Positions 2,898 to 62,642 of a stretch of 64,000 nt of DNA are shown here, piece by piece. Made by a program: the position numbers and the translations under genes. Origin of the DNA: Thermodesulfobacteriota bacterium. GTDB taxonomy: Bacteria > Desulfobacterota > Desulfobulbia > Desulfobulbales > SURF-16. The DNA is taken from NCBI GenBank assembly GCA_049323655.1, contig JBMONO010000006.1, positions 18,953-82,952 on the forward strand, written 5' to 3'. The notes beneath the pieces were generated by a model. That model saw nothing but the letters and a program-made list of their open reading frames with translations, had not been told where the DNA came from and made no database searches. Each line of letters opens with the position of its first letter. Position 1 is the stretch's first letter.

Positions 2898-3004
2898 CGT
2901 AAAAAGTCTTTTTTCACCACAGAGCGCACTGAGGACGCAGAGAAAAAATCTTTAATTACAATTAGTTACTTCTGTGCGCTCTGTAATGGAAAAAACTTTT
3001 TTGG
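2898..3004 (+). repeat. MITE-like intergenic repeat, copy A
   Basis: CGTAAAAAGTCTTTTTTCACCACAGAGCGCACTGAGGACGCAGAGAAAA...TTAATTACAATTAGTTA...CTGTGCGCTCTGTAATGGAAAAAACTTTTTTGG. The ends are inverted and the sequence is shared with the other copies. Confidence 0.85.
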
Positions 3005-3037
3005 CAACACCAAAATCCCGTATGCGTTGCACGCCTT

Positions 3038-4156
3038 TCACCACGCCAGCCGGATACGGTCACGGTCGATGCGGATGCCGTAACGGGTCTCGGGCCGCTC
3101 GCCCTGCGAACTGATCTCAAGTTCCGCCACATGGGCCTGGCCGAAGGTGTGCAGGAGGTCTTTACGGATTTTGGATTTGTAGGAATTGAAATTCACCTTG
3201 GAGAGGGAGCTGATACCGGTATCGCTCATCTCGCCAAGCAGGCGACCACCGGGAATACGACCGTAGATCACGGCGATCGCCGGGTTGCCGATGATCGACT
3301 CGGCGGCGAGAAAGCAGTCATGACACCCGGCGCAGGGGTGGGGTCGCGGGCAGTTTTTTTTCTGCTCGGCAAAAAAGGCGTACAGGGCGAGGCGGGCCGG
3401 GTGCAGATCGAGCTCCGTGCCGTTATAGATGAGCTTGCCTTCCGTCAGATTGATGACAAGGATTTTCGGGGCGTCGCGGATGAGCGACTGCAGCAGTTCG
3501 GCCGGCGGCCGGGGCTGATCGAGCATATCCGCGGCCAGCAACGGCCGGATGGAGACAAAAGGGATGGTGATGAGCCGGATTTCCGCATACCGGGTTTCCT
3601 TGATCAGCGGATTACCATTTTCATCCCGCAGGGTGACAGGCACCGAGATGCGAGGCGGGTACCAGAAATCCCGGCAGCTCTCGAACTCCGGTGAAACAAG
3701 GACATGGAGAATGCGGTCCTGAGGCCGGCCGTACAGTTGAGCCGCCAGGGTCAGACAGGAGGTCATCGTCTTTCTGCCGCCGGCCACCAGAAACCACAGG
3801 GCCGTGTCATCCCGCCGGGTAAAATGAAAGGCGAGATCAAGGCAGGTCTGGAGCAGGATTTCATTGTCTTCGGGGGTGATGATGTCCTCCACCTCGACCC
3901 CGGCCGCGGTCTTCAGGGTATGGATGTTACGGATCGAACAATCGAGGGTTGCCGGGTCGATGGCAAAGTCGGCGAGCAGAACGTCGATCCGGCGGCAGTC
4001 CGGATCGAAAAGACCGGTCAGCAGCTTTTCCTTGCCGCGCCGGGTGGTGATCATGTGGACGGCGTGGACCCGGCGGCCCTCGTGCAACAGGGCATAAAGG
4101 GTTTCGGTAATGACCTGGGGCGAAAGACCGACAACGGCAAGCAGGATGTTTTTCAT
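3038..4156 (-). CDS. CRISPR-associated CARF protein, NE0113 (TIGR02584-like) family, with a Cys-rich wHTH-like C-terminal half
   Basis: The N-terminus MKNILLAVVGLSPQVITETLYAL and LVAGGRKTMTSCL are the signature I associate with the Cas_NE0113 family. The C-terminal half has LHPARLALYAFFA and CPRPHPCAGCHDC. There is an ATGA overlap with the upstream cas6-like gene (4153-4156). Confidence 0.7.
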   Translation of the reverse strand: MKNILLAVVGLSPQVITETLYALLHEGRRVHAVHMITTRRGKEKLLTGLFDPDCRRIDVLLADFAIDPATLDCSIRNIHTLKTAAGVEVEDIITPEDNEILLQTCLDLAFHFTRRDDTALWFLVAGGRKTMTSCLTLAAQLYGRPQDRILHVLVSPEFESCRDFWYPPRISVPVTLRDENGNPLIKETRYAEIRLITIPFVSIRPLLAADMLDQPRPPAELLQSLIRDAPKILVINLTEGKLIYNGTELDLHPARLALYAFFAEQKKNCPRPHPCAGCHDCFLAAESIIGNPAIAVIYGRIPGGRLLGEMSDTGISSLSKVNFNSYKSKIRKDLLHTFGQAHVAELEISSQGERPETRYGIRIDRDRIRLAW

Positions 4157-5133
4157 GGCGTTTTCGAGACCGTCACGCTGATGCGGCCCAGCCCGAAGGC
4201 GGTCTGTTTGCCGAGATGCGCGGTTACGCAGTAGTGCAGCAGAGGCAGAAATTCACTGAGATCGCCGCCCTGATAAAGAAGCCGGCCCATTACTCCACCA
4301 AAGAGCATGCTGCTTTTCTGGCGATTACTGTAACGTTCATAATCGACCCAGCGGCTCTCTGCGGCGACCAGCTGCACGGCGTCGGCGCGGGCGACGATGC
4401 CGCGATAGTCGAGGTTCGGCTCGCCTTCGCCGTAGGCTGCTTCGAGGCTGGCGACCCGACGCAGGGCGGCCCGGATGACGACATGAAATGGCAGCCGTTC
4501 CTGCAGACCGTTGTCATGCTTGAGCCGCAGCGGGGTCAGGCAGGAAAGGGCGAGCATGTCATTATCCTCCGCCGCGACCGGGGCCAGGTCGAGCCGCGGC
4601 ATGGCGGCCGGCGACCGGAGAACGCCTTCGGCAAAGACAAGGTCATCGCCGAGCCGCACCGATTCCAGCAGAAAACGGCCCGGCTCGCGGTTTCTCTTGC
4701 CGAGCCCCTCCCGGCCCGCCTCCTGAACCGCATAAACGACATGGGGCAGATAGTCGTTGGCCCGGCCGAACAGCAAAAGGCTGAAGCAAAATGAATCTCC
4801 TTTGCCGTAAAACCGCTTTTCCTCATCCGGCGGCATCAGGACATAGGGATGGGGGCGATGGGCGATGCGGGGCCGACCGGACCGCTCCCCTTCCGGCTCG
4901 CTGGTCTCGAAAAAAAAGGCATACGGGCAGCTGACGACGAGCAGGCAGTCCTTGCAATCCTGCCGCCGCAGCGCACAACTGATCCGCCGCAGTGCATGAC
5001 CGATCCCGCCCCGCAGGGTTGACCCCTTGAAAACCGGCAGAACGGCGTCCGTTTCAAACCGGCAGAAAAATGTATAGCGTCCCGCTCGCATGGCACCTTC
5101 CGTTTTTTCAGAAAACATTGAGAGCTTATCCAC
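4153..5133 (-). CDS. cas6: Cas6-like RAMP endoribonuclease (Cys-rich pfam10040-type)
   Basis: VLPVFKGSTLRGGIGHAL, Cys cluster CALRRQDCKDCLLVVSCPY, RPHPYVL, and a C-terminal glycine-rich loop HLGKQTAFGLGRI typical of Cas6. Confidence 0.6.
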   Translation of the reverse strand: MDKLSMFSEKTEGAMRAGRYTFFCRFETDAVLPVFKGSTLRGGIGHALRRISCALRRQDCKDCLLVVSCPYAFFFETSEPEGERSGRPRIAHRPHPYVLMPPDEEKRFYGKGDSFCFSLLLFGRANDYLPHVVYAVQEAGREGLGKRNREPGRFLLESVRLGDDLVFAEGVLRSPAAMPRLDLAPVAAEDNDMLALSCLTPLRLKHDNGLQERLPFHVVIRAALRRVASLEAAYGEGEPNLDYRGIVARADAVQLVAAESRWVDYERYSNRQKSSMLFGGVMGRLLYQGGDLSEFLPLLHYCVTAHLGKQTAFGLGRISVTVSKTP

Positions 5134-5152
5134 AAATAAATCTTGATAAAAT

Positions 5153-5267
5153 CGTAAAAGGTCTTTTTTACCACAGAGATCACAGAGAAAATATTTAAAT
5201 TACAGCTAGTTACCTCTTAGAACTATGTAGACTCTGTGGTTGATTTTCTGTTTTTACCCAACCATCA
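5153..5267 (+). repeat. MITE-like intergenic repeat, copy B (diverged)
   Basis: CGTAAAAGGTCTTTTTTACCACAGAGATCACAGAGAAAATATTTAAATTACAGCTAGTTA...GACTCTGTGGTTGATTTTCTGTTTTTACCCAACCATCA. Confidence 0.75.
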
Positions 5268-5458
5268 ATCTTTTGTGCTTGCATCCGGCTTTTGGCCGCA
5301 ATGCCGCACCGTACCAGCGGTTTTTGCGGAAATCACGCCCTGCAACATTGCCTGAACCGCAGCCCCGCCGCCTGACAAAATCATTTTTATCGTCATAGCA
5401 GAAATCCTGACGCAAATCAACCCCCTGCCCTATATCCGGACTGGGCTGTTTTCCCGCC

Positions 5459-7760: not shown

Positions 7761-8642
7761 TTATCGCATCAGGGCGACAATGGTGGCAAGCGCATAACAG
7801 AAAAGCCAGCCGCAGGCGAACAGCCGGGCCCGGCGCCCCCAAGGGCGTTGTTCATCGAGAAAGGCCAATGCCGCCAGCAACAGCAGCGGCACCATGACGC
7901 CGGCCCAGAACGGGTGCATATAGCGCAGCAATTCCTGCAGGCCGAGAAAAAACCAGGGGCCGGCAATATGAAAGACCCCGAGCTGCATCGGTTCCATCGG
8001 GGCCTGCCACCAGAGAGCGATCACCAGCATGAGAACGAGCAGTCCGCCGTGCTCCGTCACCCGCACCCGGTAGCGGCGCAGATGGTCCCAGGCGAAGATC
8101 AGCCACAGCACCGCCAGACCGATGACATGGTTGGCGTACACCCGCTGCAATCCCTCCTGGCTGATGGCAAAGAGCAGGGAATTTATTGTCTCGCCGATAA
8201 AGGGGATGGCCAGACAGATGTTTTCCGCGATCAATCCGGCCGCCTCGCCGGTTGCGTCGCCCCGCAGCACATACCCGGTAAAGAGCAGCAGCACGGCAAG
8301 CGGCATGGTGACGATGAGCCAGAGCCATCTGCGCCGGGACAGGCGGCGCTCCCTTCCCCATAGAATAGCAAGAAGATGGACGATTGACAGAAGAAAAAAG
8401 GCCTGGCTCGAATAAAAATGCAGAGAACGCCAGAATGCCCCGAAAGGAATGAGCAGATCCAGGGAGGCGGCCGAATAAAAGGGGTGCTCGGCATCATACT
8501 GCCAGGCCAAAACAATGCCGGAGAAGACCGAGACGTAGAGGGCGATAAGGCTTTTCCCACCCCAGCCGGTGTCGAGAAAGCGCTCTTTGAGCCGCACGGC
8601 CGCCTCAGAGGGAGACGATATATCCGGATTTTTGCGGATCAC
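7761..8642 (-). CDS. Cytochrome b (bc-complex type) membrane subunit
   Basis: Multi-TM protein with RSLHFYSSQAFFLLSIVHLL, a cytochrome b N-terminal-domain-like heme-ligand helix. GTG start overlaps the end of the Rieske gene. Confidence 0.65.
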   Translation of the reverse strand: MIRKNPDISSPSEAAVRLKERFLDTGWGGKSLIALYVSVFSGIVLAWQYDAEHPFYSAASLDLLIPFGAFWRSLHFYSSQAFFLLSIVHLLAILWGRERRLSRRRWLWLIVTMPLAVLLLFTGYVLRGDATGEAAGLIAENICLAIPFIGETINSLLFAISQEGLQRVYANHVIGLAVLWLIFAWDHLRRYRVRVTEHGGLLVLMLVIALWWQAPMEPMQLGVFHIAGPWFFLGLQELLRYMHPFWAGVMVPLLLLAALAFLDEQRPWGRRARLFACGWLFCYALATIVALMR

Positions 8643-9015
8643 TCAATTTTTCCACCGGGAAAAGGGGCAGGTTTTTCGTGGCCGGCCCGTCAACCCGTTC
8701 GCCTTTCGGGGTGAATCGGCTCTGGTGACAGGGACAGATGAGCTGATGCTCCTTTTCACTGTAGTTGAGCCGGCAGCCAAGATGGGTGCAGGTCCGGGAA
8801 ACCGCCCATGCCTGCTTGTCGTCACGGAACAGGGCAAATTCCGGATCGAGATAGACATCGCCGGGGTTCATCAGCTTTTCAACCCGGACCAGGCGCGGCT
8901 TTTTCGGGACAGTAAAGCCGACAAAACGCAGCAGCGGATAACAGAGGACAGCCAGGGCGGCCAGCCGGATCCAGTCCCATCCCCTGCGCAGAAATCCCCG
9001 GCGCTGCTCGTCCAT
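8605..9015 (-). CDS. Rieske [2Fe-2S] protein with Tat-type signal anchor
   Basis: CTHLGCRL...CPCHQSRF Rieske boxes. N-terminal RRGFLRRG twin-arginine-like motif followed by a hydrophobic helix. Confidence 0.85.
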   Translation of the reverse strand: MDEQRRGFLRRGWDWIRLAALAVLCYPLLRFVGFTVPKKPRLVRVEKLMNPGDVYLDPEFALFRDDKQAWAVSRTCTHLGCRLNYSEKEHQLICPCHQSRFTPKGERVDGPATKNLPLFPVEKLSDPQKSGYIVSL

Positions 9016-9024
9016 GGCCGGATC

Positions 9025-11217
9025 TTACCCCAGCCGCCGCAGCGGCACGGGACGAACGAAGTTAACCCGCATGCCACGCACGCCGCTGAGCGGATCCTCC
9101 TTGCTGCGGGTCATCAGACCGGTATCGGAGACGCCCCGGCCAAAGGCGGCATGGAGATGGGCGGAGCGACAACCGAAGCCGTGGACCAGGTAGACGCAAT
9201 CGGGCCGGATGCCCGGTGTCACCTTGACCCGAATCTGCTGCAGCGACCTGATTTTGTCCTGATTCTCAAGCAGTACCGCCTCACCGTTTTCAATGCCGAG
9301 CTGAGCCGCCACCGTGTCGTTCAGCCACAATTCGTTTTCCCCCATTTCATGCAGCAACCAGGGATTATTGATGGTGGCGGTCAGGGTATGGACCGGGCTG
9401 CGGCCGGAAAGCAGACGGAAGAACCCGGCGGGCGGCGGCGGGGTCTCCTCGTAGCCGGGCAGCGGGTCCCACCCATTGGCCATGAACTCTGCGGAAAAAA
9501 GGGCGATTTTGCCGTCAGCGGTCGGGAAAGGTCTTGCCGTTCCGGCTACAGGCCCGGTGCTGTCCGGCGATGGATTCGACGTCTGATTGAGGGTCATTAC
9601 CCCTCCGGCGGCGCGCAGCTCTTCGAGACTGAGGTTGACCGCGCCAAGCTGACCATCAAGAAAGGTCCGGCCGTCGCTGAAGGAGAAGGAGTGGGGCCGC
9701 TCCAGCCGGTCAGCCAGTTCCTTGACGATCTGATAGGGTTCCCGGGCCTCGAAACGGGGAGCAATGGCGGGAAAGCCGGCAGCGACCAGGGGCGTGTCTT
9801 CCGCCGTCCCGGTTTCCAGGACGTCATAGCGTTCGAGAAAGGTCGCCTCCGGCAGAATGATATCGGCATAGAGGGCGGTTTCGCCGGGCAACACGTCACA
9901 GCAGAAGACAAAATCGGCCCGCTTGAAGGCATCCACCGTCTTGAAGGGCGAGGAATGGTTCTGGAAAGGGTTCTGCCCCCAGCACCCCACCATCCGGATC
10001 GAGCCACCCAAAATCCCGTTCATCAGCCGGGAAAAGGAAGAGCTTCCCTCCCCCTTGATCCGGGAAAACTGGGCAACAGCGTCAGGCAGAGTCAAGGTGG
10101 ATGGCCGTTGCAGGGCGCCGGGCCGGTCAACGGCGCCGAGCAGCGCCATGAGCAGGGTCTGGGCCCGCACCCGCTGCACATCGTTGCCGTACCAGCTCAG
10201 ATGGCCACCCGGATGAATGATGACCGCCGGGGCGGCGGCAGCCATCAGTTCGGCGGTGCGGATGATTTCCTCTGCGGTCAGACCGGTGATCTCCGCCACC
10301 CGCTGGACCGGATAATTACGCAGGTGCGCGGTGAGTTCCGCAAATCCGGTACAGTGAGCCTCCACCCATCCTTTGTCGTAAAGGCCCTGGAAGACGAGAT
10401 GGTGCATCCAGCCGAGCAGCAGGGCGGTATCAGTGCCGGGGGTGATGGACAGATGGTGACCGGCCTTGGCGGCAATGGCGGAAAAGCGGGGATCGACAAC
10501 GATCAGCTCCGCCCCGCGCTGCCGGGCGGCCAGCAGCCGCCGCAGCTCCGGCACCTGGACGTTCTCGCCGAAATGGCTGCCAAGCAGGACGATGCACCGG
10601 CTCTCCCGGTAGTCGAGGCGAGGCGGATCGCCGGGCTCAAATCCGAAGGTAGCCCGACAGGCCTGATTGCGAATGGCGTCGCAGTGGCTGACCGCCGCAT
10701 CGTGGATCTGAGTGATGCCGCAGTCGGAAAAGAGCTTTTTGATGAAAAAGGAGGAAGGTCCGCCGGTAAAAAGAGCGATGCTCTCCGGGCCGCTCCGGGT
10801 GAGATTTTCCGTCAGCTTGCCGGCGATGGCGGCAAGCGCCTCCTCCCAGCTGATTCGTTTCCACTTGCCGTCACCCCGTTCGCCGACCCGCCGCAGAGGG
10901 TACTTGAGGCGGTCCGGATCATCGACCAGCCGCACCGCTGCCTGGCCGCGGGCGCAGAGGGCGCTGCCGTTGAGGGGGCTCTGGTCGTTGCCCTCCACCT
11001 TGCTCACCCGCTCGCCATCCACCGTTGCCAGCACATGGCAGCGGGCCCGGCACATGGCGCAGAGCGAAGGGACACGGGTCGGCGGGGTGGGCTGCGAAAC
11101 CGGCATCGCGACCGGGGCCTGGGCAAAGGCCGGAGCGGAGCCGACGGGCAACGACAAGGAGAGAAGACCGAGGCCCGAGCCCTGCAGAAAGGTACGGCGG
11201 GAAATACGGTTTAACAT
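9025..11217 (-). CDS. Tat-exported molybdopterin oxidoreductase catalytic subunit (Psr/Phs/Ttr-like MopB family)
   Basis: Tat signal SRRTFLQGSGLGLLSLSLPVGSAPAFA. N-terminal FeS motif CAMCRARCHV...GNDQSPLNGSALCARG. 730 aa with MopB-like blocks throughout. Confidence 0.8.
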   Translation of the reverse strand: MLNRISRRTFLQGSGLGLLSLSLPVGSAPAFAQAPVAMPVSQPTPPTRVPSLCAMCRARCHVLATVDGERVSKVEGNDQSPLNGSALCARGQAAVRLVDDPDRLKYPLRRVGERGDGKWKRISWEEALAAIAGKLTENLTRSGPESIALFTGGPSSFFIKKLFSDCGITQIHDAAVSHCDAIRNQACRATFGFEPGDPPRLDYRESRCIVLLGSHFGENVQVPELRRLLAARQRGAELIVVDPRFSAIAAKAGHHLSITPGTDTALLLGWMHHLVFQGLYDKGWVEAHCTGFAELTAHLRNYPVQRVAEITGLTAEEIIRTAELMAAAAPAVIIHPGGHLSWYGNDVQRVRAQTLLMALLGAVDRPGALQRPSTLTLPDAVAQFSRIKGEGSSSFSRLMNGILGGSIRMVGCWGQNPFQNHSSPFKTVDAFKRADFVFCCDVLPGETALYADIILPEATFLERYDVLETGTAEDTPLVAAGFPAIAPRFEAREPYQIVKELADRLERPHSFSFSDGRTFLDGQLGAVNLSLEELRAAGGVMTLNQTSNPSPDSTGPVAGTARPFPTADGKIALFSAEFMANGWDPLPGYEETPPPPAGFFRLLSGRSPVHTLTATINNPWLLHEMGENELWLNDTVAAQLGIENGEAVLLENQDKIRSLQQIRVKVTPGIRPDCVYLVHGFGCRSAHLHAAFGRGVSDTGLMTRSKEDPLSGVRGMRVNFVRPVPLRRLG

Positions 11218-15964: not shown

Positions 15965-16029
15965 CGTTCCTGCTTCCGGGGCGATGCCGGTGGTCTGGAT
16001 TTGCTGCTGCTGTTGCTGTTTTATAAAAT

Positions 16030-16136
16030 CGTAAAAAACCGTTTCCCCACTGAGAGGAGAGAGGACACTGAGAAAATATATTGAATTACAATTAGCTATC
16101 TCCGTGATCTCTCTGTGCTCTGCGGTCGATTTCCAG
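16030..16136 (+). repeat. MITE-like intergenic repeat, copy C (diverged)
   Basis: CGTAAAAAACCGTTTCCCCACTGAGAGGAGAGAGGACACTGAGAAAATATATTGAATTACAATTAGCTATCTCCGTGATCTCTCTGTGCTCTGCGGTCGATTTCC. Confidence 0.75.
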
Positions 16137-16252
16137 CACTCCTGTTGCCGTTCCCTGACGCAATAAACCGGTACCCGCGGGGATACCGGTTTATTGCCAT
16201 CTGCTGCCGCGAAAACGCTCACCTCTTCCCTCCCCTGCGGGAGGCAGGTGAA

Positions 16253-22261: not shown

Positions 22262-22436
22262 CTCCGAATCCTTTTGCAGATCATGTTATTCCGGCTGCGG
22301 AACCGGCGCTTTTTCCCGGCCCGGCCTTTTTTTGTTTGAAAGTGGGCGCAGCAGCCTCTATGATGACTGAGCCCTGCTGCCGGTTCAGGACACCGACCCG
22401 GACAACCGCTGATCGCCACACCAATGAACACTTGTC

Positions 22437-22605
22437 GGAATCGTAAAAGCCACGATTCCGACGGGCGGTGTATTGTCGCTCGTTGTTTTCTCGTTCCCGC
22501 CTGCCATGGTTTGCGGTTTTTTGCGAGACCATCAACATTTCAGCAGGGGGACGATTCAGTTTCTTTTTCCAAGCTGGATAATTACAAATCAGTTACTCTA
22601 CTAGC
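22437..22605. repeat. Decayed or rearranged remnants of the MITE-like repeat
   Basis: The pieces AATCGTAAAAGCC, TTTTGCGAGACCATCAAC and ATAATTACAAATCAGTTACTCT match the left end, right end and core of the repeat, but out of order. Confidence 0.3.
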
Positions 22606-31564: not shown

Positions 31565-31612
31565 AGGAGTTTGCCGCACAAAAGTACTTTTTACGGATTC
31601 ACCACAGATGAA

Positions 31613-34796: not shown

Positions 34797-35668
34797 TTCT
34801 CCACCCTCCGCCGGACATACTCGACATAGAGCCCGGCCGCATCGATATTGCGCGCCTCGAGAATACCCCGGAAGCCGCCAAAGGCGGAGACCTCGAACAC
34901 CATCGGACCGTCGCTGGTCTCCACCACGTCAACACAGGTAAAGTCGAGCCCGAACGGCGCCTGGGCCCGATAAGCCAGCTCGATGATCTCCGGTCCCGGA
35001 TCAACGGCCTCATACCTGCCGCCGGAGGCGGTGGTGGTATTCCAGGCATCATCCTGCTGGCAGCGGGCATAGGTCGTCATGTACTCGCCGCCGAGAAAAA
35101 CGACGCCGAGATCCCGACCGTTGAGATCGATTTTTTTCTGGATGTACATAATCTTGTTTTTCGCCTTGTATTCCTCGATGACACCCCTGGCGTTGTCCTC
35201 GGCCCGCAGGACAAACATACCGCGCGCCTTGGAGGTGTAGAGCGGCTTGAACACGGCCTCGCCATATTCCCGCACCGCCCGCAGGGCGCTGTCGACGTTT
35301 TCGGTGATGGTCAGGGGCGGCATGGGGATGTTGTTGACCTGCAGGGTAATGGTGCAGGACAGCCGGTCGAGCACCCGCATGATCCGCAGGGGATCGGAAA
35401 AGATCGGCATGCCACGGTCGGCAAGATAGCGCAGGATCTCCAGCCGGTCCATCAGGTCCGGTGAGTAACGGGAGCCGATCTTTTTGATGATGAGGGCGTC
35501 CAGGGCATTGAGTTCGAGACCGTTGCTCGTCACCCGGCCGCTGGGCAGATCGAGACAGATGCGATCCGGTTCGATGAAAATTCTTTCCCCGGTCATCCGG
35601 CCCACCGTATCGGCCAGCAGCTCCGACGACCAGCCGTTTTTTATTCCTATTACTCCTATTCTCGGCAT
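34793..35668 (-). CDS. RimK-like ATP-grasp ligase (GAK-system ATP-grasp)
   Basis: VFKPLYTSKARGM, IMYIQKKIDLNGRDLGVVFLGGEY, NTTTASGG, VDVVETSDGPMVFEVSAFGGF. Start ATG 35668 (MPRIGVIG); alternatives are 35683/35686. Confidence 0.7.
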   Translation of the reverse strand: MPRIGVIGIKNGWSSELLADTVGRMTGERIFIEPDRICLDLPSGRVTSNGLELNALDALIIKKIGSRYSPDLMDRLEILRYLADRGMPIFSDPLRIMRVLDRLSCTITLQVNNIPMPPLTITENVDSALRAVREYGEAVFKPLYTSKARGMFVLRAEDNARGVIEEYKAKNKIMYIQKKIDLNGRDLGVVFLGGEYMTTYARCQQDDAWNTTTASGGRYEAVDPGPEIIELAYRAQAPFGLDFTCVDVVETSDGPMVFEVSAFGGFRGILEARNIDAAGLYVEYVRRRVEK

Positions 35669-35690
35669 GAGTTTGTCCTTCATCATTTAT

Positions 35691-35804
35691 GATGATTTCG
35701 TAAAAGCTGAAAATCTGCCACAGAGACCACAGATGTAACTAATCATAATTAAAGATGTTTTCTATGTCCTCAGTGCGCTCTGTGGTGAAAAAAGACTTTT
35801 TCCG
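35691..35804 (-). repeat. MITE-like intergenic repeat, copy F (inverted orientation), inside the GAK-type operon
   Basis: GATGATTTCGTAAAAGCTGAAAATCTGCCACAGAGACCACAG...CTCAGTGCGCTCTGTGGTGAAAAAAGACTTTTTCCG. Confidence 0.85.
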
Positions 35805-35898
35805 ATTGTATCTTTCATGTACGGTTTTTCTGATCCGCTCCCTATACCTGTCGTGCAGGACATAAGGCCGGGCCGGACCGTCTCTTTCGTGCCAGGCA

Positions 35899-37545
35899 TC
35901 AGTAATACATGATGGCGGTTGGCAGCCGGAAACGCGTCCAGTCGGTGCCTTCGTGGGCCAGCACCTTTTCCAGCAGGAAATGGGCGCGCAAAAACATCTC
36001 GCGGGCAAACTTGGTATTGAGTTCAAAACGGGTCGAGGTGTAGAAGGAGCGGGCCAGAGCGAGGGCCATCCGCGCCTCGAAGGTGGCGTCTTCCTTTTCC
36101 CGGGCAAACTCCTCCGCCATTTCATACATCTTCTTGATCGTCCAGTTGAGCCGGTCGCGCAGCTGCAGCTTGAAGGCGGGCTGGCGGAAATTGGAGATAA
36201 TAAAGACCGAGACATCCTGGACATAGTCGGCATAGCGGGAGCGGTGCAGATCGATGAAATGAATGCGCTCCTTTATTGAGTTATAAAAAATATTGTTGAC
36301 GTTGAAATCGCCATGGATAAAGACGGTAAAGGGCGCCGGCAGCTCCTCCTCGATGAGCAGGCACTTGTCGAGGATCTGTTCAGTGGCATCGATCCGTCGC
36401 TGACCGATGTTCTGCTCCACCCGGTAGAACTCGGGATGGACCTGCAGAACGCTCTCCAGACGGCTCAAAATCTGCTCGACATAGTCGATCTTTCTCGCCC
36501 CCGGCCGCAGGGTGTGATTCCAGACCTCCCGCACCGTGGTCAGCAGCCGGATACAGGCGGCGCTCAACTCCTCGCGGTCGGAGGAGAGAATGACCTCCTC
36601 GTAGGTGCAGCAGGGAATGTATTCGAGCAGCAGGGAGGAGGTGTCGCCGGATTCCTGATAACTGAAAATCTTCGGCACCAGACCGGGAAAAATCTCCGTC
36701 CAGATCTCGATATTTTTCTTTTCGGCCCGGATCTTGTCACGGTTGCCTTCCTTGAAGATGCTGCTGGTGGACTGAGGGAGGAAATGCTCGCCCTGCTCGT
36801 GCTGGAGCTTGCGGATCCGGCAGCCGGATCGGCTGCCGAGAATGGAGGAAAAATCGACCTCGGACAGGGTGCCTCGATAGCCGCTCAAAGTCAGTGACTC
36901 CTCCAGGGCCTGAAACTGATCGATCTTGATCTTTTCCCCGAGGATGGCGAGCAGCAGGGCCTCGCCGATATTGAGCAGGGAATCGCCGATTCGCTCCAGA
37001 TAGCGAAAAATGAAAAGCACGGTGACCAGATCGCCGATATGCCTGCCCTCCCGCATTTCCTCCATGATCTTGACGAAATTTTCCTTGTAATAGGCGTCGA
37101 TCTGATGCTCGGAACGGCAGATCTGCAGGGAGGCGGCCAGATCGCTCTTCTTGAAGGCCGGAATGATTTTCGGCAAAAACTTCTGGATTTCGCTGAGGAT
37201 GATCCGGTAATTGAAGTTCTGGACAAAGGCGACATCGCTGAGATAGCCGACCTGACGGGCAATGTTGACGCAGAAATCGGCGATGCGTTCCAGATTAACG
37301 GCGATGATATGGACCGCGTGAATGGAATCTGTTTCTTTCTTGCTGAGCGGGCTGCCGGCGGTCAGGATATCAAAGCACCACTTCTCGATGATGGTTTTCA
37401 GATTATCGATATAATCATCCTTGCAGATGATTTTCTGCAGATCCTCCTTGTCCCCGGCGGCCAGAAAATCGCTGATGGCATCAACCTGTTTGTCAACCTC
37501 CAGCACCAGGAAATTGAAATTTTCCTCCAGCCCGCGACACAGCAT
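35899..37545 (-). CDS. PhoU-domain / aminoglycoside-phosphotransferase-like kinase fusion protein
   Basis: Two PhoU repeats (NLERIADFCVNIARQV; YLERIGDSLLNIGEALL) sit in the N-terminal half. The C-terminal APH/choline-kinase-like motifs are FIHGDFNVNNIFY and FIDLHRSRYADYVQD. 548 aa. Confidence 0.65.
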   Translation of the reverse strand: MLCRGLEENFNFLVLEVDKQVDAISDFLAAGDKEDLQKIICKDDYIDNLKTIIEKWCFDILTAGSPLSKKETDSIHAVHIIAVNLERIADFCVNIARQVGYLSDVAFVQNFNYRIILSEIQKFLPKIIPAFKKSDLAASLQICRSEHQIDAYYKENFVKIMEEMREGRHIGDLVTVLFIFRYLERIGDSLLNIGEALLLAILGEKIKIDQFQALEESLTLSGYRGTLSEVDFSSILGSRSGCRIRKLQHEQGEHFLPQSTSSIFKEGNRDKIRAEKKNIEIWTEIFPGLVPKIFSYQESGDTSSLLLEYIPCCTYEEVILSSDREELSAACIRLLTTVREVWNHTLRPGARKIDYVEQILSRLESVLQVHPEFYRVEQNIGQRRIDATEQILDKCLLIEEELPAPFTVFIHGDFNVNNIFYNSIKERIHFIDLHRSRYADYVQDVSVFIISNFRQPAFKLQLRDRLNWTIKKMYEMAEEFAREKEDATFEARMALALARSFYTSTRFELNTKFAREMFLRAHFLLEKVLAHEGTDWTRFRLPTAIMYY

Positions 37546-37558
37546 ATCCCCCCCGACC

Positions 37559-37828
37559 TCAGTTCGAAATGGTCATGGGGGTTGCGGAATCACACTTTTT
37601 ATCCTTGCTTTCCACCCATGATATCTTGATGTTGAGTTTATTCATCCCGTCTTTTTTCTTGGCCCGCACCGTGAATTTCATCAGGTCGTCAAGCCGCATG
37701 GAGATCTCGTCGCCATTCGACCTGAGGGTGATCGTCCCCTTTTCAATGGAATCGACCAGCGATTCCAGGTAGGTGCGGATTGTTCCGGCATCCTGCAATG
37801 ATTCGTAATTAAATTTCTGATTCGACAT
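37559..37828 (-). CDS. Small amphi-Trp-domain protein
   Basis: MSNQKFNYESLQDAGTIRTYLESLVDSIEKGTITL...KFTVRAKKKDGMNKLNIKISWVESK. GGAGAGAGGA RBS upstream of ATG 37828. Paralogous to 48557-48835 and 48902-49372. Confidence 0.6.
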   Translation of the reverse strand: MSNQKFNYESLQDAGTIRTYLESLVDSIEKGTITLRSNGDEISMRLDDLMKFTVRAKKKDGMNKLNIKISWVESKDKKCDSATPMTISN

Positions 37829-37868
37829 GGTTCCTCTCTCCTGTAGCCTGTCATGATTCCTTGTCACT

Positions 37869-39038
37869 TCAGCCATTCAGACGTGCCGCGTACTCATCAA
37901 TGATGTTGCCTCTGTCCATCTCGGCGACGATCAGTTTTTTCCGGATGGCCAGATCGTCCCAGACCGGCTGCACCCCGATCTCCCGGGCCATCTTCTGCTC
38001 ATCCTGTTCGTCCGCCGGTTTGACCTTTTCCCCCATGTGAGTGTCATCGCCGGTGAAAACCAGAAGTCGCCGGGCAGACGGGCCAAGATGCCTGTTGCGG
38101 TTGATCACCGTGGTGATGAGAAAATCGGTGAACTCCCGGGACTGCGGATTCCACACCTCGTAGCCGTCAACATCGTATTCGGCCAGGAGAATCGGCCAGA
38201 ACTGTTCAGGATGGGGAATGACGATGCCGCCGCCGAGGGAGCGCGCCTCCTCGATGATCTCCGAGGTGCGGTAAAAAAAGGCCGGAGAAAAATCCTTTTT
38301 CACCTCCAGCTTCACCGCCCGCAGAAAGGTCTGGGCCCGGTTGATAAAGGTGTTGCCGTACTCCTCCCGCAGGGTATTGAAAAAATCCCGCAACAGCTTG
38401 TTCTTGACGTTATCCTGGGGAATGGCGTCGAGATTTTCCTCAAGCAGGGTGTTGACCTTGGCCGTATGGATGCGGACGAATTCAATCAGCTGCTCGTCGG
38501 CCCCGGTTTCGGCGGCCGCCTTCTCCAGCCGCTCCGCCACCGGCCGGATGATGGTGTGAATAAAATCAAAAAGCTGGGAGGCCCGGTATTTGCGGGTATG
38601 TTCGAGGGCGGCCCGCAACACCGAGGCATTGGCCAGGGCGGCGGTGCGGAAATGGAGCAGCAGCTGCACCTTGCGGTTAAAGCCGCGGGAATAACAGTCC
38701 ACCTCGACCCCGCTGTAGTCGCCGTAACTCATCAGCACATTGTGCTGGGTGGGAATGATCAGCGATTTTTTCCTGTTGGGAAAGGTGGCGCAGATCCGCT
38801 GCTCGATGAGTTCCATCGGCACATATTCCGGATGCCAGTGGACGGCCAGCACCTCCTGCTGCCGCGGCAGGATAAGGGCCGGCGTCGTTACCAGATCAAT
38901 CTGCTCACCGGTCAGCTCAATGGAAACGACGTGAAAAAACCGTTCCCGATCCTTTTCCGTCACCTCTTCGGTCAGGCCGTCCCAGACCGGGACGGCCTCA
39001 TTTTCCGGCGATTTTTTTTTCACGAGTTTCATGGGCAT
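37869..39038 (-). CDS. Conserved hypothetical protein with PHP-like metal-phosphoesterase motifs
   Basis: AVHWHPEY (HxH), GGIVIPHPEQF, EVWNPQS and FTGDDTHMG resemble PHP motifs split by a helical insert. 389 aa. Confidence 0.35.
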   Translation of the reverse strand: MPMKLVKKKSPENEAVPVWDGLTEEVTEKDRERFFHVVSIELTGEQIDLVTTPALILPRQQEVLAVHWHPEYVPMELIEQRICATFPNRKKSLIIPTQHNVLMSYGDYSGVEVDCYSRGFNRKVQLLLHFRTAALANASVLRAALEHTRKYRASQLFDFIHTIIRPVAERLEKAAAETGADEQLIEFVRIHTAKVNTLLEENLDAIPQDNVKNKLLRDFFNTLREEYGNTFINRAQTFLRAVKLEVKKDFSPAFFYRTSEIIEEARSLGGGIVIPHPEQFWPILLAEYDVDGYEVWNPQSREFTDFLITTVINRNRHLGPSARRLLVFTGDDTHMGEKVKPADEQDEQKMAREIGVQPVWDDLAIRKKLIVAEMDRGNIIDEYAARLNG

Positions 39039-39050
39039 CTGCTCGTCGTT

Positions 39051-39593
39051 TCATTTGTAGCGGGCATGACACTCCTTCTTCATCCCGCGCAGGACGGCAT
39101 ACTGGGCGTTGACCGCCGCATAATCACCGGTGGCATAAAGCCGGCCAAACTCTTCGCTGGCCGCGCTGTAAGCCGGATAACAGTCGTCACCATAACCTGG
39201 ATAGCCGACCATCAGCGCCGAATCGGCAAGAAAATTCTTTACCATGGCGGGTTCGGGCAATCTGCCCTCCGCCAGCATCGCGCCCATGGCCTTGAAGTTG
39301 CGGTCCATCCGTTTCTTGAAGGAAGTATACTTGCTCTGTTCAGCCCCTGCCTGGTCTGCATCAGGGCCATCGGCGCCGTCATCCGCCCCGTGCTTGATCT
39401 TGATCTTGAACTGAATAAACTCCCCCCGCCTTTTGAGGCCGATCTTCAATTTCTGGAATTCATCCAGACTGATATCAAGATCCTGCAAGGGTGAGCCGTT
39501 ATTGCGCTCGATGGCATCTGCCATCGAGCGCAGGAAAGCGGCGGCCTCTATGACGGAAAACATTCTTTCCAGTTTGTGTGCCCGACCGGTCAT
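39051..39593 (-). CDS. amphi-Trp-like N-domain protein with an XXXCH-type C-terminus (GAK-system XXXCH protein-like)
   Basis: The N-half (AAAFLRSMADAIERNNGSPL...EFIQFKIKIKH) parallels the amphi-Trp proteins. The C-terminus is ...AVLRGMKKECHARYK. GGAG lies 6 nt upstream of ATG 39593 (track start 39635). Confidence 0.55.
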   Translation of the reverse strand: MTGRAHKLERMFSVIEAAAFLRSMADAIERNNGSPLQDLDISLDEFQKLKIGLKRRGEFIQFKIKIKHGADDGADGPDADQAGAEQSKYTSFKKRMDRNFKAMGAMLAEGRLPEPAMVKNFLADSALMVGYPGYGDDCYPAYSAASEEFGRLYATGDYAAVNAQYAVLRGMKKECHARYK

Positions 39594-43245: not shown

Positions 43246-43252
43246 TAAAGAC

Positions 43253-43382
43253 AAACCCGTAAAAAGTCTTTTTTCACCACAGAGCGCACCGAGGACACAG
43301 AGAAAACATATTTAGATACAATTAGTTATCTCCGTGCACCCTGCGGTCTCCGTGGTTAATTTTCAGTTTTCACGAAATCATC
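43253..43382 (+). repeat. MITE-like intergenic repeat, copy G, between the PSD-like and Lgt-like genes
   Basis: AAACCCGTAAAAAGTCTTTTTTCACCACAGAGCGCACCGAGGACACAGAGAAAACATATTTAGATACAATTAGTTATCTCCGTGCACCCTGCGGTCTCCGTGGTTAATTTTCAGTTTTCACGAAATCATC. Confidence 0.9.
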
Positions 43383-44458: not shown

Positions 44459-44473
44459 TAAAAAGCGCCTGCC

Positions 44474-44604
44474 AAACCCGTAAGATTTTTTTTTTCGCCA
44501 CAGAGCGCGCTGAGAGCGCAGAGAAAAAATCTTTAATACAATCAGTTATCTGTGGGTGTTCTGCGGTCTCTGCGGGTAATTTTCAGTTTTCACGAGACCA
44601 TCAC
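44474..44604 (+). repeat. MITE-like intergenic repeat, copy H
   Basis: AAACCCGTAAGATTTTTTTTTTCGCCACAGAGCGCGCTGAGAGCGCAGAGAAAAAATCTTTAATACAATCAGTTATCTGTGGGTGTTCTGCGGTCTCTGCGGGTAATTTTCAGTTTTCACGAGACCATCAC. Confidence 0.9.
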
Positions 44605-46559
44605 GCTTCGAGGAGATGCCTGTCAACCGCCAGACGGCAGGTTCCCTTTTCCAGGCAGCCCAGGCAGGCGTTTTCAACAAGCGTGAGGGGAGAGCGGCGG
44701 CTGTTGCCCATCCAGGCAATAGCGAATCTGCTGTGGAGATTGCCCTTGGCCGTCCTTTTCAGAATGGCGATGGAGCGGGAGACGTCTTCCATTGTATAGA
44801 GACGCGGACCGGCCTCGATCAGCAGTACCGCAGCGCTCAGACTGAGCAGGCCGAAGCGTTTTTTTTCACCATTGCGATCAGTTGCCAGGATAAACCCCTG
44901 CTCCCGCTCTCCATGGTCATAGAGAGTCGCGATAGCGTGATTGAATTTGTCGATAATCTCTTCCACCTCTGAACAGAGTCGCGCCATTGCCCCCTTGGCA
45001 AGCACAGCGCCGGCGAAAAAATCATCGCCGCCGAGATGGCCGGCAAAATTCTCCTTGTCTGTGGCAAAAAAAGAATTTTTCAGGAGATCGGCAAACATAA
45101 GAATGGCACGATCGCCCCGGCGAAAGCCGTAATGATCATTAAAGGGCTTGAAATCGTTAAAATCGAAATAAATCAGCCCGTATCCGGTGGCCACGTCCGT
45201 GTAAGCCCTGGTCAGATAATCGACGATCTGGCTGTTGCCTGGCATTTTTGACAGAGGATTCTGCTCCCGGGCAAGGGACAAATTTTTTTCATGAAGTATC
45301 TTTATGATGGCCGCGCTGGTCAGGAAGCCAACGTAACGCCCATCACTGGTCAGGATAATACCTTCCGGATCACGGGTCAGGGAAAACACCTCCAGCAGCT
45401 TTTCAATGGAGCGGGTCTTTTCCATGACCGGGCAGAACGAGACGAAATTCTGGACGTTTTTGCACAGGCTCTTGTTCAGCAGCAGGTTGCGGCCGTATTG
45501 CGTGTAGACATAATCCTTGAGAAATTTTTCCCGGATGATACCGAGCGGTTCACCGCCCGGATTCAAGAGAGGAAAGAACGTCCGCTCCTTGTTCTGACGG
45601 AACTTTTTCAGAACGATCTCCAAGCCGTCCCGGGTATACTGATCAGGTTCCAGGACCACCGGCGGGATGTATTCGATATTGGCGGCGAGAATCTTTTCAT
45701 CACTGTTATCGGCGCGTCTGTCCTTGCGGCCGAGCACGGCGATTTCCTCATAGACAAATCGGATATCCGACAAAATGACGGTCGGCTTCTGGATGAGATA
45801 ACCCTGGACATAATCACAGCCGATTTCCTTGCAGGCGAAATACTCCCGTTCCGTTTCCACCCCTTCGGCGATCACCATACTGCCCAGGATATGGGCAAGA
45901 TCAACCACCTTGGCGACAAAAAGCTTCTTTTTGGCGTCGGTGGCAATGTCATTGATGAAAAAGCGATCGATCTTGACGAAATTCGGCTCCGCGTAGTAGA
46001 GCAGTTGCAGACCGGAAAATCCGGAGCCGAAATCGTCGATGGCGACTTTCAACTGAGACGTCCGCCGTTTCCGGCAGTAGCCGCAAAATGCCTCATAATC
46101 GTCAATGGGCTGCTGTTCCGAAATTTCCAGACAGATCATGCCCGGTTCCACACCACAGGCAGACACCAACCCGGAGAAATTTTCACACAATTCGTCGGGG
46201 TTGGCCAGAATGCGGTTATCGAGATTGAGAAAGAGAATAATCCGCCCATTCTGCGGCAGGAGCAGATATTTGCGGACCGCCTTTTCCCGGAGCAGGAGCT
46301 CGAAAAAGGCAAGCTCACCGTCGCGATAGGCAGCATCGAACATCTCGCCGATCGTGGAGAAACCGGCGGCGGCCCAGTTGCGAACCAGGGCCTCACAGCC
46401 GAGACAGACCCCGGTGTGGATATTGACGATGGGTTGAAAGGCATAGTCAAGCTTCTCAACGATGGCCCGCCAATCGACCCCGCCACTGGGATATGACGTC
46501 TGCCGGCAAAAAGCATGATCGTCACCTGCAAGAATCGCCTCCCCAACAATCAGTGCCAT
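44601..46559 (-). CDS. EAL - CBS pair - GGDEF-like (GGDDF) c-di-GMP signalling protein
   Basis: EAL domain: FQPIVNIHTGVCLGCEALVR, VAIDDFGSGFSG. GGDEF domain: DFNDFKPFNDHYGFRRGDRAIL and HLGGDDFF. The stop codon lies in the end of repeat H. Confidence 0.8.
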   Translation of the reverse strand: MALIVGEAILAGDDHAFCRQTSYPSGGVDWRAIVEKLDYAFQPIVNIHTGVCLGCEALVRNWAAAGFSTIGEMFDAAYRDGELAFFELLLREKAVRKYLLLPQNGRIILFLNLDNRILANPDELCENFSGLVSACGVEPGMICLEISEQQPIDDYEAFCGYCRKRRTSQLKVAIDDFGSGFSGLQLLYYAEPNFVKIDRFFINDIATDAKKKLFVAKVVDLAHILGSMVIAEGVETEREYFACKEIGCDYVQGYLIQKPTVILSDIRFVYEEIAVLGRKDRRADNSDEKILAANIEYIPPVVLEPDQYTRDGLEIVLKKFRQNKERTFFPLLNPGGEPLGIIREKFLKDYVYTQYGRNLLLNKSLCKNVQNFVSFCPVMEKTRSIEKLLEVFSLTRDPEGIILTSDGRYVGFLTSAAIIKILHEKNLSLAREQNPLSKMPGNSQIVDYLTRAYTDVATGYGLIYFDFNDFKPFNDHYGFRRGDRAILMFADLLKNSFFATDKENFAGHLGGDDFFAGAVLAKGAMARLCSEVEEIIDKFNHAIATLYDHGEREQGFILATDRNGEKKRFGLLSLSAAVLLIEAGPRLYTMEDVSRSIAILKRTAKGNLHSRFAIAWMGNSRRSPLTLVENACLGCLEKGTCRLAVDRHLLEA

Positions 46560-51724: not shown

Positions 51725-51867
51725 TTTTTCGCTCCTTTTTTTTGCTGTATGTTTTATATGACAATGAAAAACAATCGCCCCACTGGCGTCCACATTTTGA
51801 ACGAAAGCGAACCGATGTCGCATTTCCAGCAGCACACGGCCACTTTGTTCCCAGCTAAAGCAATGAC

Positions 51868-51997
51868 AAACCCGTAAAAAGTCTTTTTTCACCACAGAGC
51901 GCACTGAGAACGCAGAGAAAACATATTTAATTACAATTAGTTATCTCTGTGCGCTCTGTGGTCTCTGTGGTTAATTTTCACTTTATTACGAGACCAT
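51868..51997 (+). repeat. MITE-like intergenic repeat, copy I (best-preserved copy)
   Basis: AAACCCGTAAAAAGTCTTTTTTCACCACAGAGCGCACTGAGAACGCAGAGAAAACATATTTAATTACAATTAGTTATCTCTGTGCGCTCTGTGGTCTCTGTGGTTAATTTTCACTTTATTACGAGACCAT. The arms pair at 17 of 18 positions. Confidence 0.92.
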
Positions 51998-52356
51998 AAA
52001 GCAATAAATACCCGGCAAATATGAGGATGGGATCAGAATGACGACAGTTTTCCGTATGGAAATTATGAGGATCTCATTTACAGAGCACAAAAAAAGGACA
52101 GGCAATCCAACCCTCGACAAAACAAGAAGAAAAGTATGCAACAAAAAGCTAACGGAAACAAAACAGACAACAAATACTGACACGGTAAAGTGAAATCACT
52201 GAAGGACGCCATTGACCACGTTCGGGCTTCCCTTCACGCATGATCCCTCCAATCGGCCGGGACGATGATCCCCACCAGAGCATCTTTCATCGTCCCGGCC
52301 ACCCCCCATCCCGAAGGTTATCGCCCTCCCGGGCAGGCCGGCAGACAAGGAGTCGC

Positions 52357-61127: not shown

Positions 61128-61180
61128 ACCCTGTTTTTCTTTGTGTTTTCCCCGGTCTCTGTGGTAGAATTTGCGGAGCA
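61128..61180 (+). repeat. Partial (right-half) copy of the MITE-like repeat
   Basis: TCTTTGTGTTTTCCCCGGTCTCTGTGGTAGAATTTGCGG aligns with the right arm TCTTTGTGCGCTTCGTGGTCTCTGTGGTTGATTTTCAG of copy E. Confidence 0.5.
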
Positions 61181-61188
61181 GCAACAGC

Positions 61189-62073
61189 ATGAACGCGATA
61201 CTTGACATCAGCAGTCACGATCTTTCCGCCATGAGAACCAAGGAGGATGTTTTGTCGCTGGCCCAAGACAAAGCGCTTCACAAAAAACGTGAAACTGTAG
61301 GCAACCCCTTTGTCGAAACCCCCCGCATGACCTGCCGAGAGGTTTTTGTCTACTACGGGGAGAAAATGGCGATCAACAATGTCAGTATCGATATCGCCCA
61401 CAATGAAGTGATTGCCATGATCGGACCGTCCGGCTGCGGCAAATCGACCTTTCTCCGCTGCCTCAACCGCATGAACGACACGGTGGAGGGCTGCCGGGTC
61501 ACCGGTGAAATCCGCCTCGACGACATGGATATCCATGACAAGAGCGTCGATGTCGTTCCCCTGCGCGCCAGAGTCGGCATGGTCTTCCAGAAACCAAACC
61601 CCTTCCCGAAATCCATTTACGACAATATCGCCTACGGCCCGAAAATCCACGGACTGGTCAAAAACAAGGCGGAACTCGACGAGGTGGTGGAAACCTCTCT
61701 GAAAAAGGCCGGCCTCTGGGAAGAGGTGAAAGACCGACTCAGCCAGCCCGGCACCGGGTTGTCCGGCGGCCAGCAGCAGCGTCTCTGTATTGCCCGGGCC
61801 ATTGCCGTCAGTCCGGAGGTTATCCTCATGGACGAACCCTGTTCGGCCCTGGACCCCATCGCCACCGCCAAAGTGGAGGAACTGATCGCCGAATTGCGTG
61901 AACAGTACTCCATCGTCATCGTCACCCACTCCATGCAGCAGGCCGCCCGCGTCTCCCAGCGCACCGCCTATTTCCATCTGGGCGATCTCATCGAGGTCGG
62001 GCCGACGGAGCGTATCTTCACCAATCCCCGCCACCAGCTGACCGAGGATTACATCACCGGCCGTTTCGGCTGA
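61189..62073 (+). CDS. pstB: Phosphate ABC transporter ATP-binding protein PstB
   Basis: [18 protein letters not shown]...[40 protein letters not shown]. The start is uncertain: TTG 61171 (track), ATG 61189, or an internal TTG after AAGGAGG near 61245. Confidence 0.88.
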
Positions 62074-62121
62074 TTGCCTCCCGTCCCGCCTGCCAGTAGC
62101 CGCGAAACGGGAAGCTCCGTC

Positions 62122-62520
62122 CTACAGACGCTCGAGGATGGCCTTGACCGTATTGCCTTCCGCCATGCCGGCGAAATGGGCCATGATCGGCTTCATCGCC
62201 TGCATCTTGTTGCCAAGCTTGCTGAAATCGATATTGGCGGCGATCCAGGTCCTGATCTCCTCCTCGCTTGCCTGACGCGGCAGATAGCTTTCGAGAATCT
62301 GCAAATACTCCGACGGCTCTCCGCCGGTCTGGGCCAGGGTCTCGTTCTCCGCCTTGATCAGCTTGCGGATGACCGCGATCACTTCCGTGTCATCGAGCTC
62401 CTTTTTCGCCTGGCGGCCGAACTCGCCGAGCAGGACACGCAGCGCCGAGGTTCGTGCTTCCGTCTTGGCCTTCATCGATTCCTTTAAATCACTTTTGATC
62501 TTCTCCTGCAGCGACATCAT
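62122..62520 (-). CDS. GatB/YqeY-domain protein
   Basis: MSLQEKIKSDLKESMKAKTEARTSALRVLL... is a typical YqeY N-terminus. Confidence 0.75.
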   Translation of the reverse strand: MMSLQEKIKSDLKESMKAKTEARTSALRVLLGEFGRQAKKELDDTEVIAVIRKLIKAENETLAQTGGEPSEYLQILESYLPRQASEEEIRTWIAANIDFSKLGNKMQAMKPIMAHFAGMAEGNTVKAILERL

Positions 62521-62547
62521 TTTCTCCTTTTCAAGCACGGATAGTTT

Positions 62548-62642
62548 CGTAATAACAAAGATGCAACCACAGAGACGACGGAAGCCGCAGAGAAATTACG
62601 CTGCGCCCTCTGTGCTCTCAGTGGTGAAAATAGACGTTTACC
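62548..62642 (-). repeat. MITE-like intergenic repeat, copy J (inverted orientation, AT-rich core deleted)
   Basis: CGTAATAACAAAGATGCAACCACAGAGACGACGGAAGCCGCAGAGAAATTACGCTGCGCCCTCTGTGCTCTCAGTGGTGAAAATAGACGTTTACC. Confidence 0.65.

Follow-up and report, generated by a model that had tools for sequence, protein, structure and literature searches.

The stretch of DNA analysed here, which we call the window, is 64,000 nucleotides long and comes from a Thermodesulfobacteriota bacterium of the Desulfobulbia (assembly GCA_049323655.1, contig JBMONO010000006.1, forward-strand positions 18,953 to 82,952). Its genes are of the ordinary housekeeping kind, its G+C content is 53-62% and it holds no tRNA gene. 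In the spacers between these genes lie ten copies of a single, imperfectly palindromic element with a consensus of 133 bp (GACAAACCCG...ACGAGACCATC), inside which there is no open reading frame (ORF). A preliminary description, made from the letters alone, had listed the ten copies and likened them to miniature inverted-repeat transposable elements (MITEs). All of them are where it placed them, all are intergenic and both orientations occur; only the extents had to be revised, the true element being slightly longer (Table 1). In fact, a profile built from the ten copies re-detects every one of them (E = 1e-22 to 6e-43), a search of the window for direct repeats also yields them, as overlapping families, and a MAFFT alignment, in which copies D, F and J were entered reverse-complemented, has a mean column identity of 71% over about 140 columns. 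A 25-nt pattern drawn from the left arm matches seven times in the window against 0.00 expected and CCACAGAG occurs 15 times against 1.6 expected, which excludes chance.

The order of parts that had been proposed, an end, three tandem 9-mers, an AT-rich core, three inverse 9-mers and a second end, is correct. In the window the left arm reads TTTT-C-ACCACAGAG-CGCACNGAG-GACACAGAG and the right arm CTCTGTGnn-CTCTGYGGT-CTCTGTGGT. The family reaches a density of about one copy per 6 kb and occupies roughly one sixth of the intergenic gaps of the genome, and the spacers that hold window copies are often filled almost end to end by the element: copy G begins 5 nt past the upstream gene's stop codon and finishes 17 nt ahead of the next ATG.

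The family extends well beyond the window. When one genome per species was scanned with the left-arm pattern, at least 63 stretches matched, among them at least 38 loci on many contigs of the metagenome-assembled genome (MAG) JBMONN01 (Thermodesulfobacteriota) and at least eight in the MAG CAZUZJ01 (uncultured Desulfobulbia). One JBMONN01 locus, L011, is 95-96% identical to window positions 31016-39170, so the two genomes are close relatives. When the fetched loci were searched with the profile, 103 non-redundant hits emerged, 70 of full length; beyond the ten window copies, about 60 full-length copies belong to JBMONN01 and CAZUZJ01, and two or three copies per 8-kb locus are common. Dispersal over many contigs of two related MAGs shows that the family is genome-wide and excludes a local duplication confined to this region, a possibility that the preliminary description had raised against itself. 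Taken together, the copies are 59-96% identical to the consensus and split into subfamilies by their right end (AGACC in 22, ATTCC in 13, and others), as expected of successive bursts. The full element found no match by BLAST against plasmid records, where the ends alone gave chance matches only; 5,426 E. coli genomes held no match, and BLAST against phages gave only marginal matches of 33 nt. With the Lgt-like protein that copies G and H enclose as query, a metagenome scan turned up no relatives, and a search for exactly matching proteins yielded just two short contigs, both of the same strain.

What bounds the element can be defined precisely. The ends are imperfect terminal inverted repeats of 16-17 bp, GAYRRWCYCGTAAAAA, as is seen when the left end, GACAAACCCGTAAAAAG, is compared with the right end read in reverse complement, GATGGTCTCGTAAAAAC. 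These ends, whose inverted arrangement had already been noticed, are conserved over 65-70 copies. We anchored 65 copies on CGTAAAA at the left and ACGA at the right and compared all left with all right flanking positions. A single diagonal of six positions stands out, with left/right identities of 0.69, 0.68, 0.77, 0.65, 0.82 and 0.85, all other diagonals lying near 0.25. A occupies the first duplicated position in 77% of left and 89% of right flanks, T occupies the final one in 74% and 78%, and the element bases next to the duplication, G and A, are 92-95% conserved. These base frequencies fix the element as GAC...ATC, flanked by a 6-bp duplication of a palindromic, AT-rich target, C-AWNNWT-G, with the junctions on either side of the hexamer. 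A flanking direct repeat of 6 bp is present at most copies and is perfect at window copies B, D and I; at copy G five of the six positions agree.

One of these copies also provides a polymorphism. L011 lacks copy D: at the orthologous site ...TTCACCACAGAT is followed directly by AACAAGGAG and a single ACAGAT is left, exactly the expected empty site. Whether by insertion or by excision, what moves or is unstable is thus the unit bounded by the hexamers. The stretch at 31583-31612, described as a decayed remnant, is indeed a remnant, more exactly a solo end-like piece that adjoins copy D and is present also in the relative that lacks this copy. What had been taken for a half copy at 61128-61180 amounts to a weak fragment (E = 0.33).

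The restriction to spacers holds on a larger sample. In 358 kb of DNA (the window and the JBMONN01 loci), 82% is coding by a crude gene call based on GC3, and 60 of 66 copies overlap a predicted coding sequence by no more than 15 nt. By class of spacer, 34 copies are co-directional, 13 convergent and 15 divergent, a distribution similar to that of all spacers (165, 49 and 44). Within the co-directional spacers there is no strand bias, 20 copies lying sense and 14 antisense.

The same ends also enclose other interiors. A second stretch that had been called a decayed remnant (22437-22605) turned out to be an intact member of another family, family 2, which has related ends and a different interior devoid of 9-mers (Table 1). 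Family 2 is about 115 bp long, has about 30 hits in the fetched related loci (e.g. L060:5385-5500; L031:4327-4536) and opens its interior with a small hairpin of its own, GTCGGAATCGT-AAAAGCC-ACGATTCCGAC. Copies of family 1, the family with the 9-mers, and of family 2 often abut end to end, in at least eight cases. At one orthologous site, family 2 is found in CAZUZJ01 (L031:4250-4580) and family 1 in JBMONN01 (L021:4650-4900), the right end being common to both; this swap could reflect recombination between elements or independent insertion. A third element, of about 215 bp, lies in an IMG/VR contig (3300031571_000223; L135:4975-5215), with ends GATGGACTCGTAAAAAC...TTTTTTACGAGACCATC and an unrelated interior. 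Its 6-bp duplication, AAGCAT, is perfect, and the element might be what is left of the autonomous one. This third element was the exception in a scan of viral contigs with the 16-mer ends, where matches were otherwise about as many as chance provides (about 28 by our own estimate). Solo ends adjoin other copies. It is therefore the ends, with their 6-bp duplication, that define the transposition system, and the 9-mer hairpin, being replaceable by other interiors, looks like cargo. Cargo is most likely its role, and it is probably not the part that the transposase recognises.

In fact, this hairpin is not specific to the element or to the genome, a point that the preliminary description lacked, and Geobacter genome papers already list similar 9-mer arrays. 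The module can be written TTTT-CACCACAGAG-[RRCACNGAG]n...loop...[CTCNGTGYY]n-GGTGAA. What other phyla have in common with the window is a T-run, (C/A)ACCACAGAG, one to three more RRCACNGAG units, then a loop and, on its far side, inverse units that finish with CTCTGTGGTGAA. Among the matches listed, it occurs at single loci in MAGs classified as Chloroflexota, Planctomycetota, Acidobacteriota (Pyrinomonadaceae), Chlamydiota, Bacteroidota, Armatimonadota, Betaproteobacteria and other Desulfobacterota; by our own estimate, 22 specified bases would match about 0.07 times by chance in the 596 Gb searched. BLAST against plasmid records places it in several cultured organisms: at many sites in Bacteroides finegoldii, one directly past the stop codon of nadC and one past dnaN, as well as in Bacteroides ovatus, Gemmatirosa kalamazoonensis, Pseudoalteromonas and cyanobacteria of the Nostocales (Anabaena, Nostoc, Calothrix and Sphaerospermopsis). 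A degenerate pattern of 28 nt matches 60 IMG/VR viral contigs; in a crude ORF analysis that looked for a tie of single arrays in such contigs to 5' UTRs or start codons, the AT-rich flanks produced stops in all frames.

Across phyla only the inner module is common: the arms are nearly identical over 25-30 nt, the outer sequences differ (one locus, L015, has an outer inverted repeat of its own) and the loops are unrelated, ranging from 13 to about 230 nt, with an ordinary terminator in the loop of L070. The arms may be paired, single or everted (L073 and L036/L049 for the latter two forms). In 20 independent pairs, arm-to-arm agreement at variable positions is 0.586 as compared with 0.466 after shuffling (p about 0.001). 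In L110 the three units of one arm all bear the identical variant, a sign of homogenisation within the arm. These data suggest that a widespread hairpin with tandem-repeat arms exists beyond the window family. Literature searches by sequence and by descriptor found no description of it beyond three genome papers of Aklujkar, and the hairpin core seems never to have been explained. Among the organisms surveyed we also saw intergenic nested or concatenated hairpins, in which inverted arrays of other 8-9-mers (GGAAGCCA, CGCAAAGAG, CCGCAGAGG, AACGCAGAT) surround the CACAGAG hairpin, each hairpin being built from a different short tandem unit (L093:577-803 and 5125-5351; L100:3560-4040; L067:1440-1640; L077:1400-1590; L068:1610-1650); in L100 a composite of 149-153 bp stands in tandem triplicate. 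One B. fragilis PCR primer happens to hold two units.

We propose that the window family is very probably a high-copy, non-autonomous MITE family of about 133 bp in an uncultured Desulfobulbia/Thermodesulfobacteriota lineage. This supports the preliminary description, since the hallmarks of transposition are present: terminal inverted repeats, a 6-bp duplication and a filled/empty site. The type of enzyme, the geometry of its cut and the origin of the 9-mer core as cargo would then be as follows. A transposase encoded elsewhere in the genome would recognise the terminal inverted repeats and insert the element through a 6-bp staggered cut at the AT-rich palindromic target. Insertions within genes would be purged, and copies would build up in the intergenic spacers until these are nearly filled. 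Every insertion would restore C-AWNNWT-G at both junctions and offer new targets, which would explain the end-to-end piling of copies. The long hairpin potential would stem from the inverted layout and not from a selected RNA structure, and the interior hairpin of 3+3 9-mers would be a pre-existing, pan-bacterial nonamer-array hairpin that these ends have enclosed.

Several observations weigh against this proposal. A Pfam search of about 59 window ORFs found no transposase, integrase or Y1/RAYT domain, in line with the absence of a transposase noted from the start, and neither an autonomous element with matching ends nor a transposase in any obvious place was seen in the fetched loci. A large indel of 1.3 kb between two MAGs (L060:4164-5510 versus L063:3526-3556), the only one inspected, holds a cargo gene and not an insertion sequence (IS): it consists of a 386-aa gene, whose product we judge from its sequence to be of a binding-protein or ion-channel type, and the adjoining family-2 copy. 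A single filled/empty site was available, and slippage between its two hexamers, with precise excision, would look alike. In 22 unbiased Desulfobulbia copies, the outermost 9-mers are conserved at 0.88-0.89 as compared with 0.73-0.74 for the ends and, with the loop included, 0.73-0.75, a contrast that is inflated by subfamily variation in the ends and that hints that the 9-mers, and not the ends alone, matter after insertion. Finally, a 6-bp duplication combined with GA... ends is not known to fit any one IS family of ISfinder uniquely. A resemblance to ends of the IS911/IS3 type (TGA...AAAAACTG) was considered and not adopted: the boundary analysis puts the T/A in the duplication, outside the element.

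Could the palindrome be conserved as RNA instead? A structured RNA or transcription element, such as a bidirectional terminator, an mRNA-stabilising 3' hairpin or a small RNA, would account for the stable folds on both strands (-29 to -50 kcal/mol, z -3.2 to -6.7; for copy I, -45 on the plus and -48 on the minus strand, z about -6.5), for the T-rich tracts downstream of the right arm and for the terminator-like small sub-hairpins flagged within copies D, G and H. Copy G had been cited against such a role, its arm substitutions being described as non-compensatory. This holds in part: on the plus strand they are transitions that leave A.C mismatches, whereas on the minus strand they give G.U pairs (-29 versus -50 kcal/mol), and covariation over the family as a whole is weak. 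When the hairpin of copy I was projected on 48 copies, 86.1% of cells were paired as compared with 85.3% after shuffling, and double changes were few (19 versus 13.2 +/- 2.6), at levels that arise from relatedness alone. In the consensus the middle units mismatch (U2, CGCACAGAG versus ACCGCAGAG), this pair is broken in 33 of the 48 copies, and RNAalifold returns almost no consensus structure. Moreover, the copies have no orientation bias with respect to transcription, they are not enriched at 3' ends, and copies B and I lie between divergent genes. Rfam 15 gave no hit at gathering score in the 64 kb, and at a permissive E-value the window and 12 loci from other phyla gave only sub-threshold noise resembling plant and animal miRNA hairpins. 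We thus regard conservation at the RNA level as unlikely and uphold the earlier view that it is the DNA that is conserved. Even less credible is a kinship with repetitive extragenic palindromic (REP) sequences and their BIME and REPIN assemblies, that is, palindromic extragenic repeats moved as single-stranded hairpins by a domesticated Y1 transposase (RAYT). High copy number, strictly intergenic location, a long imperfect palindrome and clustered copies all recall such repeats. Their insertions, however, proceed without target duplication, and the 6-bp duplication of the window family sets it apart from them; in addition, the GTAG-type 5' tetranucleotide is absent, the unit measures about 133 bp as compared with 20-40 nt for a REP, and no window ORF has a Y1_Tnp hit. 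That the element belongs to no named REP/BIME family, as first stated, therefore stands.

A further explanation concerns the 9-mers themselves. The arrays may be iteron-like sites for a host DNA-binding protein, a nucleoid-associated protein or a global regulator, so that elements would persist through organising or regulating the chromosome and mobility would be secondary. The recurrence of the arrays across phyla with unrelated loops and differing outer sequences, and in single or everted form (L036/L049, L073), speaks for such sites. So do the arms, which are not strict complements and agree only modestly at their variable positions, with one arm of L110 uniform in its variant, and so does the good conservation of the outermost units, the best-kept segment of the window family; in the Geobacter papers, equivalent arrays appear as putative sites for global regulators. 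Yet no such protein is known or otherwise indicated, at a period of 9 bp consecutive sites would face different sides of the helix, and the IHF-like site in the core is weak, its best match having two mismatches. Protein binding also leaves the ends, the 6-bp duplications and the polymorphism unexplained. We find it a doubtful account of the family as a whole, one that is compatible with the MITE reading and not a replacement for it. On a somewhat firmer, still tentative footing, we envision that the 9-mer-array hairpin belongs to an uncharacterised class of intergenic DNA elements that spans phyla, from Desulfobacterota, Bacteroidota, Gemmatimonadota, Cyanobacteriota and Gammaproteobacteria to the MAG lineages and viral contigs listed above. 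If true, this would imply either a mobilising enzyme of very wide distribution or the reading of the 9-mers by a conserved host factor, and the sibling arrays of CGCAAAGAG, CCGCAGAGG, AACGCAGAT and GGAAGCCA would be made by the same process.

Some neighbours of the copies are worth recording (Table 1). Copies A and B flank a cluster on the minus strand (170-5133) that resembles a type III CRISPR accessory module and encodes an unknown protein of 207 aa (170-793), a 657-aa protein with an A_deaminase domain (790-2763), which we take to be a Cad1-like adenosine deaminase, a Cas_NE0113 protein (3038-4156) and Cas6 (4153-5133); no CRISPR array was seen within the window. Two public short-read (Logan) contigs of the same strain, L001 and L002, cover window positions 1-2926 and both break off inside copy A. 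At copy H, the stop codon of an EAL/GGDEF/CBS gene (44601-46559, minus strand) comes from the terminal ATCA of the element (44599-44603); either the insertion remodelled the C-terminus of this protein, or the copy sits exactly at the end of the gene. Unrelated to the repeats is an operon-like trio on the minus strand (7761-11217) for a molybdopterin oxidoreductase (730 aa), a Rieske protein (136 aa) and a cytochrome b (293 aa).

Table 1. Positions in the window of the family-1 copies, of the parts of copy I, and of solo ends, fragments and the family-2 element.
Feature	Position	Strand	Identity to consensus (%)	Remarks
Copy I (best copy)	51865-51999	+	94	
Copy I, left end	51865-51881
Copy I, T-run	51882-51890
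Copy I, three 9-mers	51891-51917
Copy I, AT-rich dyad core	51918-51944
Copy I, three inverse 9-mers	51945-51971
Copy I, T-rich segment	51972-51987
Copy I, right end	51988-51999
Copy I, duplication AGCAAT	51859-51864 and 52000-52005			perfect; 1-nt irregularity at right end
Copy G	43250-43382	+	91	flanks AATAAA / AAAAAA, 5/6 agree
Copy D	31610-31743	-	87	perfect duplication ACAGAT at 31604-31609 and 31744-31749
Copy H	44471-44602	+	85	between convergent genes
Copy F	35691-35812	-	79	without one right-arm unit; found in L011 (MAG JBMONN01) too
Copy B	5145-5266	+	71	two left units; between divergent Cas6 and Hsp20 genes
Copy B, duplication AATCTT	5139-5144 and 5267-5272			perfect
Copy A	2890-3022	+	70	right arm and right end decayed beyond about 3008
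Solo end GATGGTTTCGCAAAAC	2873-2888			precedes copy A
Copy C	16022-16152	+	68	decayed
Copy E	32308-32440	+	67	decayed; common to window and L011
Copy J	62540-62650	-	59	core deleted
Solo end-like remnant GGTGAATCCGTAAAAAGTACT	31583-31609	-		adjoins copy D; kept at the relative's empty site
Marginal one-arm fragment (…GGTCTCTGTGGTAGAA)	61128-61180	-		weak
Family-2 element	22430-22559	+		related ends GTCGGAATCGTAAAA ... TTTTGCGAGACCATC; different interior, no 9-mers

Taken alone, the family adds one more to the known MITEs. With a copy about every 6 kb, it leaves the short-read assemblies of its lineage fragmented, and it provides neighbouring genes with stop codons and promoter-proximal sequence. 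The clean definition of ends and target (GAYRRWCYCGTAAAAA; 6-bp AWNNWT) is a handle for finding the responsible transposase. The hairpin core, for its part, ties scattered and unexplained notes on Geobacter to Bacteroides, cyanobacteria and many uncultured phyla; among its carriers, Bacteroides and Geobacter are culturable and genetically tractable.

In style, the window family is closest to the Correia elements of Neisseria (CREE or NEMIS). These are non-coding elements of 100-160 bp with terminal inverted repeats and a target-site duplication, present in hundreds of copies, nearly all of them intergenic and near gene ends, and they form a long hairpin when transcribed; no transposase is known for them in their host. 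Correia elements duplicate TA, have 26-bp ends and contain a functional IHF site, whereas the window family has a 6-bp AWNNWT duplication, unrelated ends, a 9-mer-array interior and only a weak IHF-like match. The BIME/RIP and ERIC (IRU) sequences of E. coli are likewise intergenic imperfect palindromes of about 100-130 bp, present in many copies and mosaic clusters and proposed to bind nucleoid proteins. They differ in making no target duplication and, for the REPs, in being mobilised by RAYTs, and have no sequence similarity to the window family. Foldback (FB) transposons of Drosophila and other eukaryotes have inverted arms of short tandem repeats with a variable loop and a variable number of units. 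The likeness is one of architecture only: FB elements are eukaryotic and of kilobase scale, no relation is implied, and in the window family the tandem-repeat arms lie inside separate terminal repeats.

By its interior, finally, the family resembles arrays listed for Geobacter in two genome papers. In G. bemidjiensis, "nonanucleotide repeats" with the consensus TTT[WCCTCTGTGR0-1Y0-1]nGTGAG are found at dozens of intergenic sites (Table S6 of PMC2996986). In G. metallireducens, "class 2 global regulator binding sites" consist of three tandem TCTCCGTS[Y] on opposite strands and are assigned, speculatively, to IHF/HU (Aklujkar et al., PMC2700814). Comparing consensus strings and not aligned sequences, the arrays of these papers and ours have in common a 9-mer core, CTCTGTG/CTCCGTG, flanked by a T-run and GTGA(G/A), and they are alike in a varying number of units, in pairing on opposite strands at variable distance and in dozens of intergenic sites. 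In these papers, however, the Geobacter arrays are described as bare, with neither ends nor duplications, whereas the window family packages them in an element with terminal inverted repeats and a target-site duplication.

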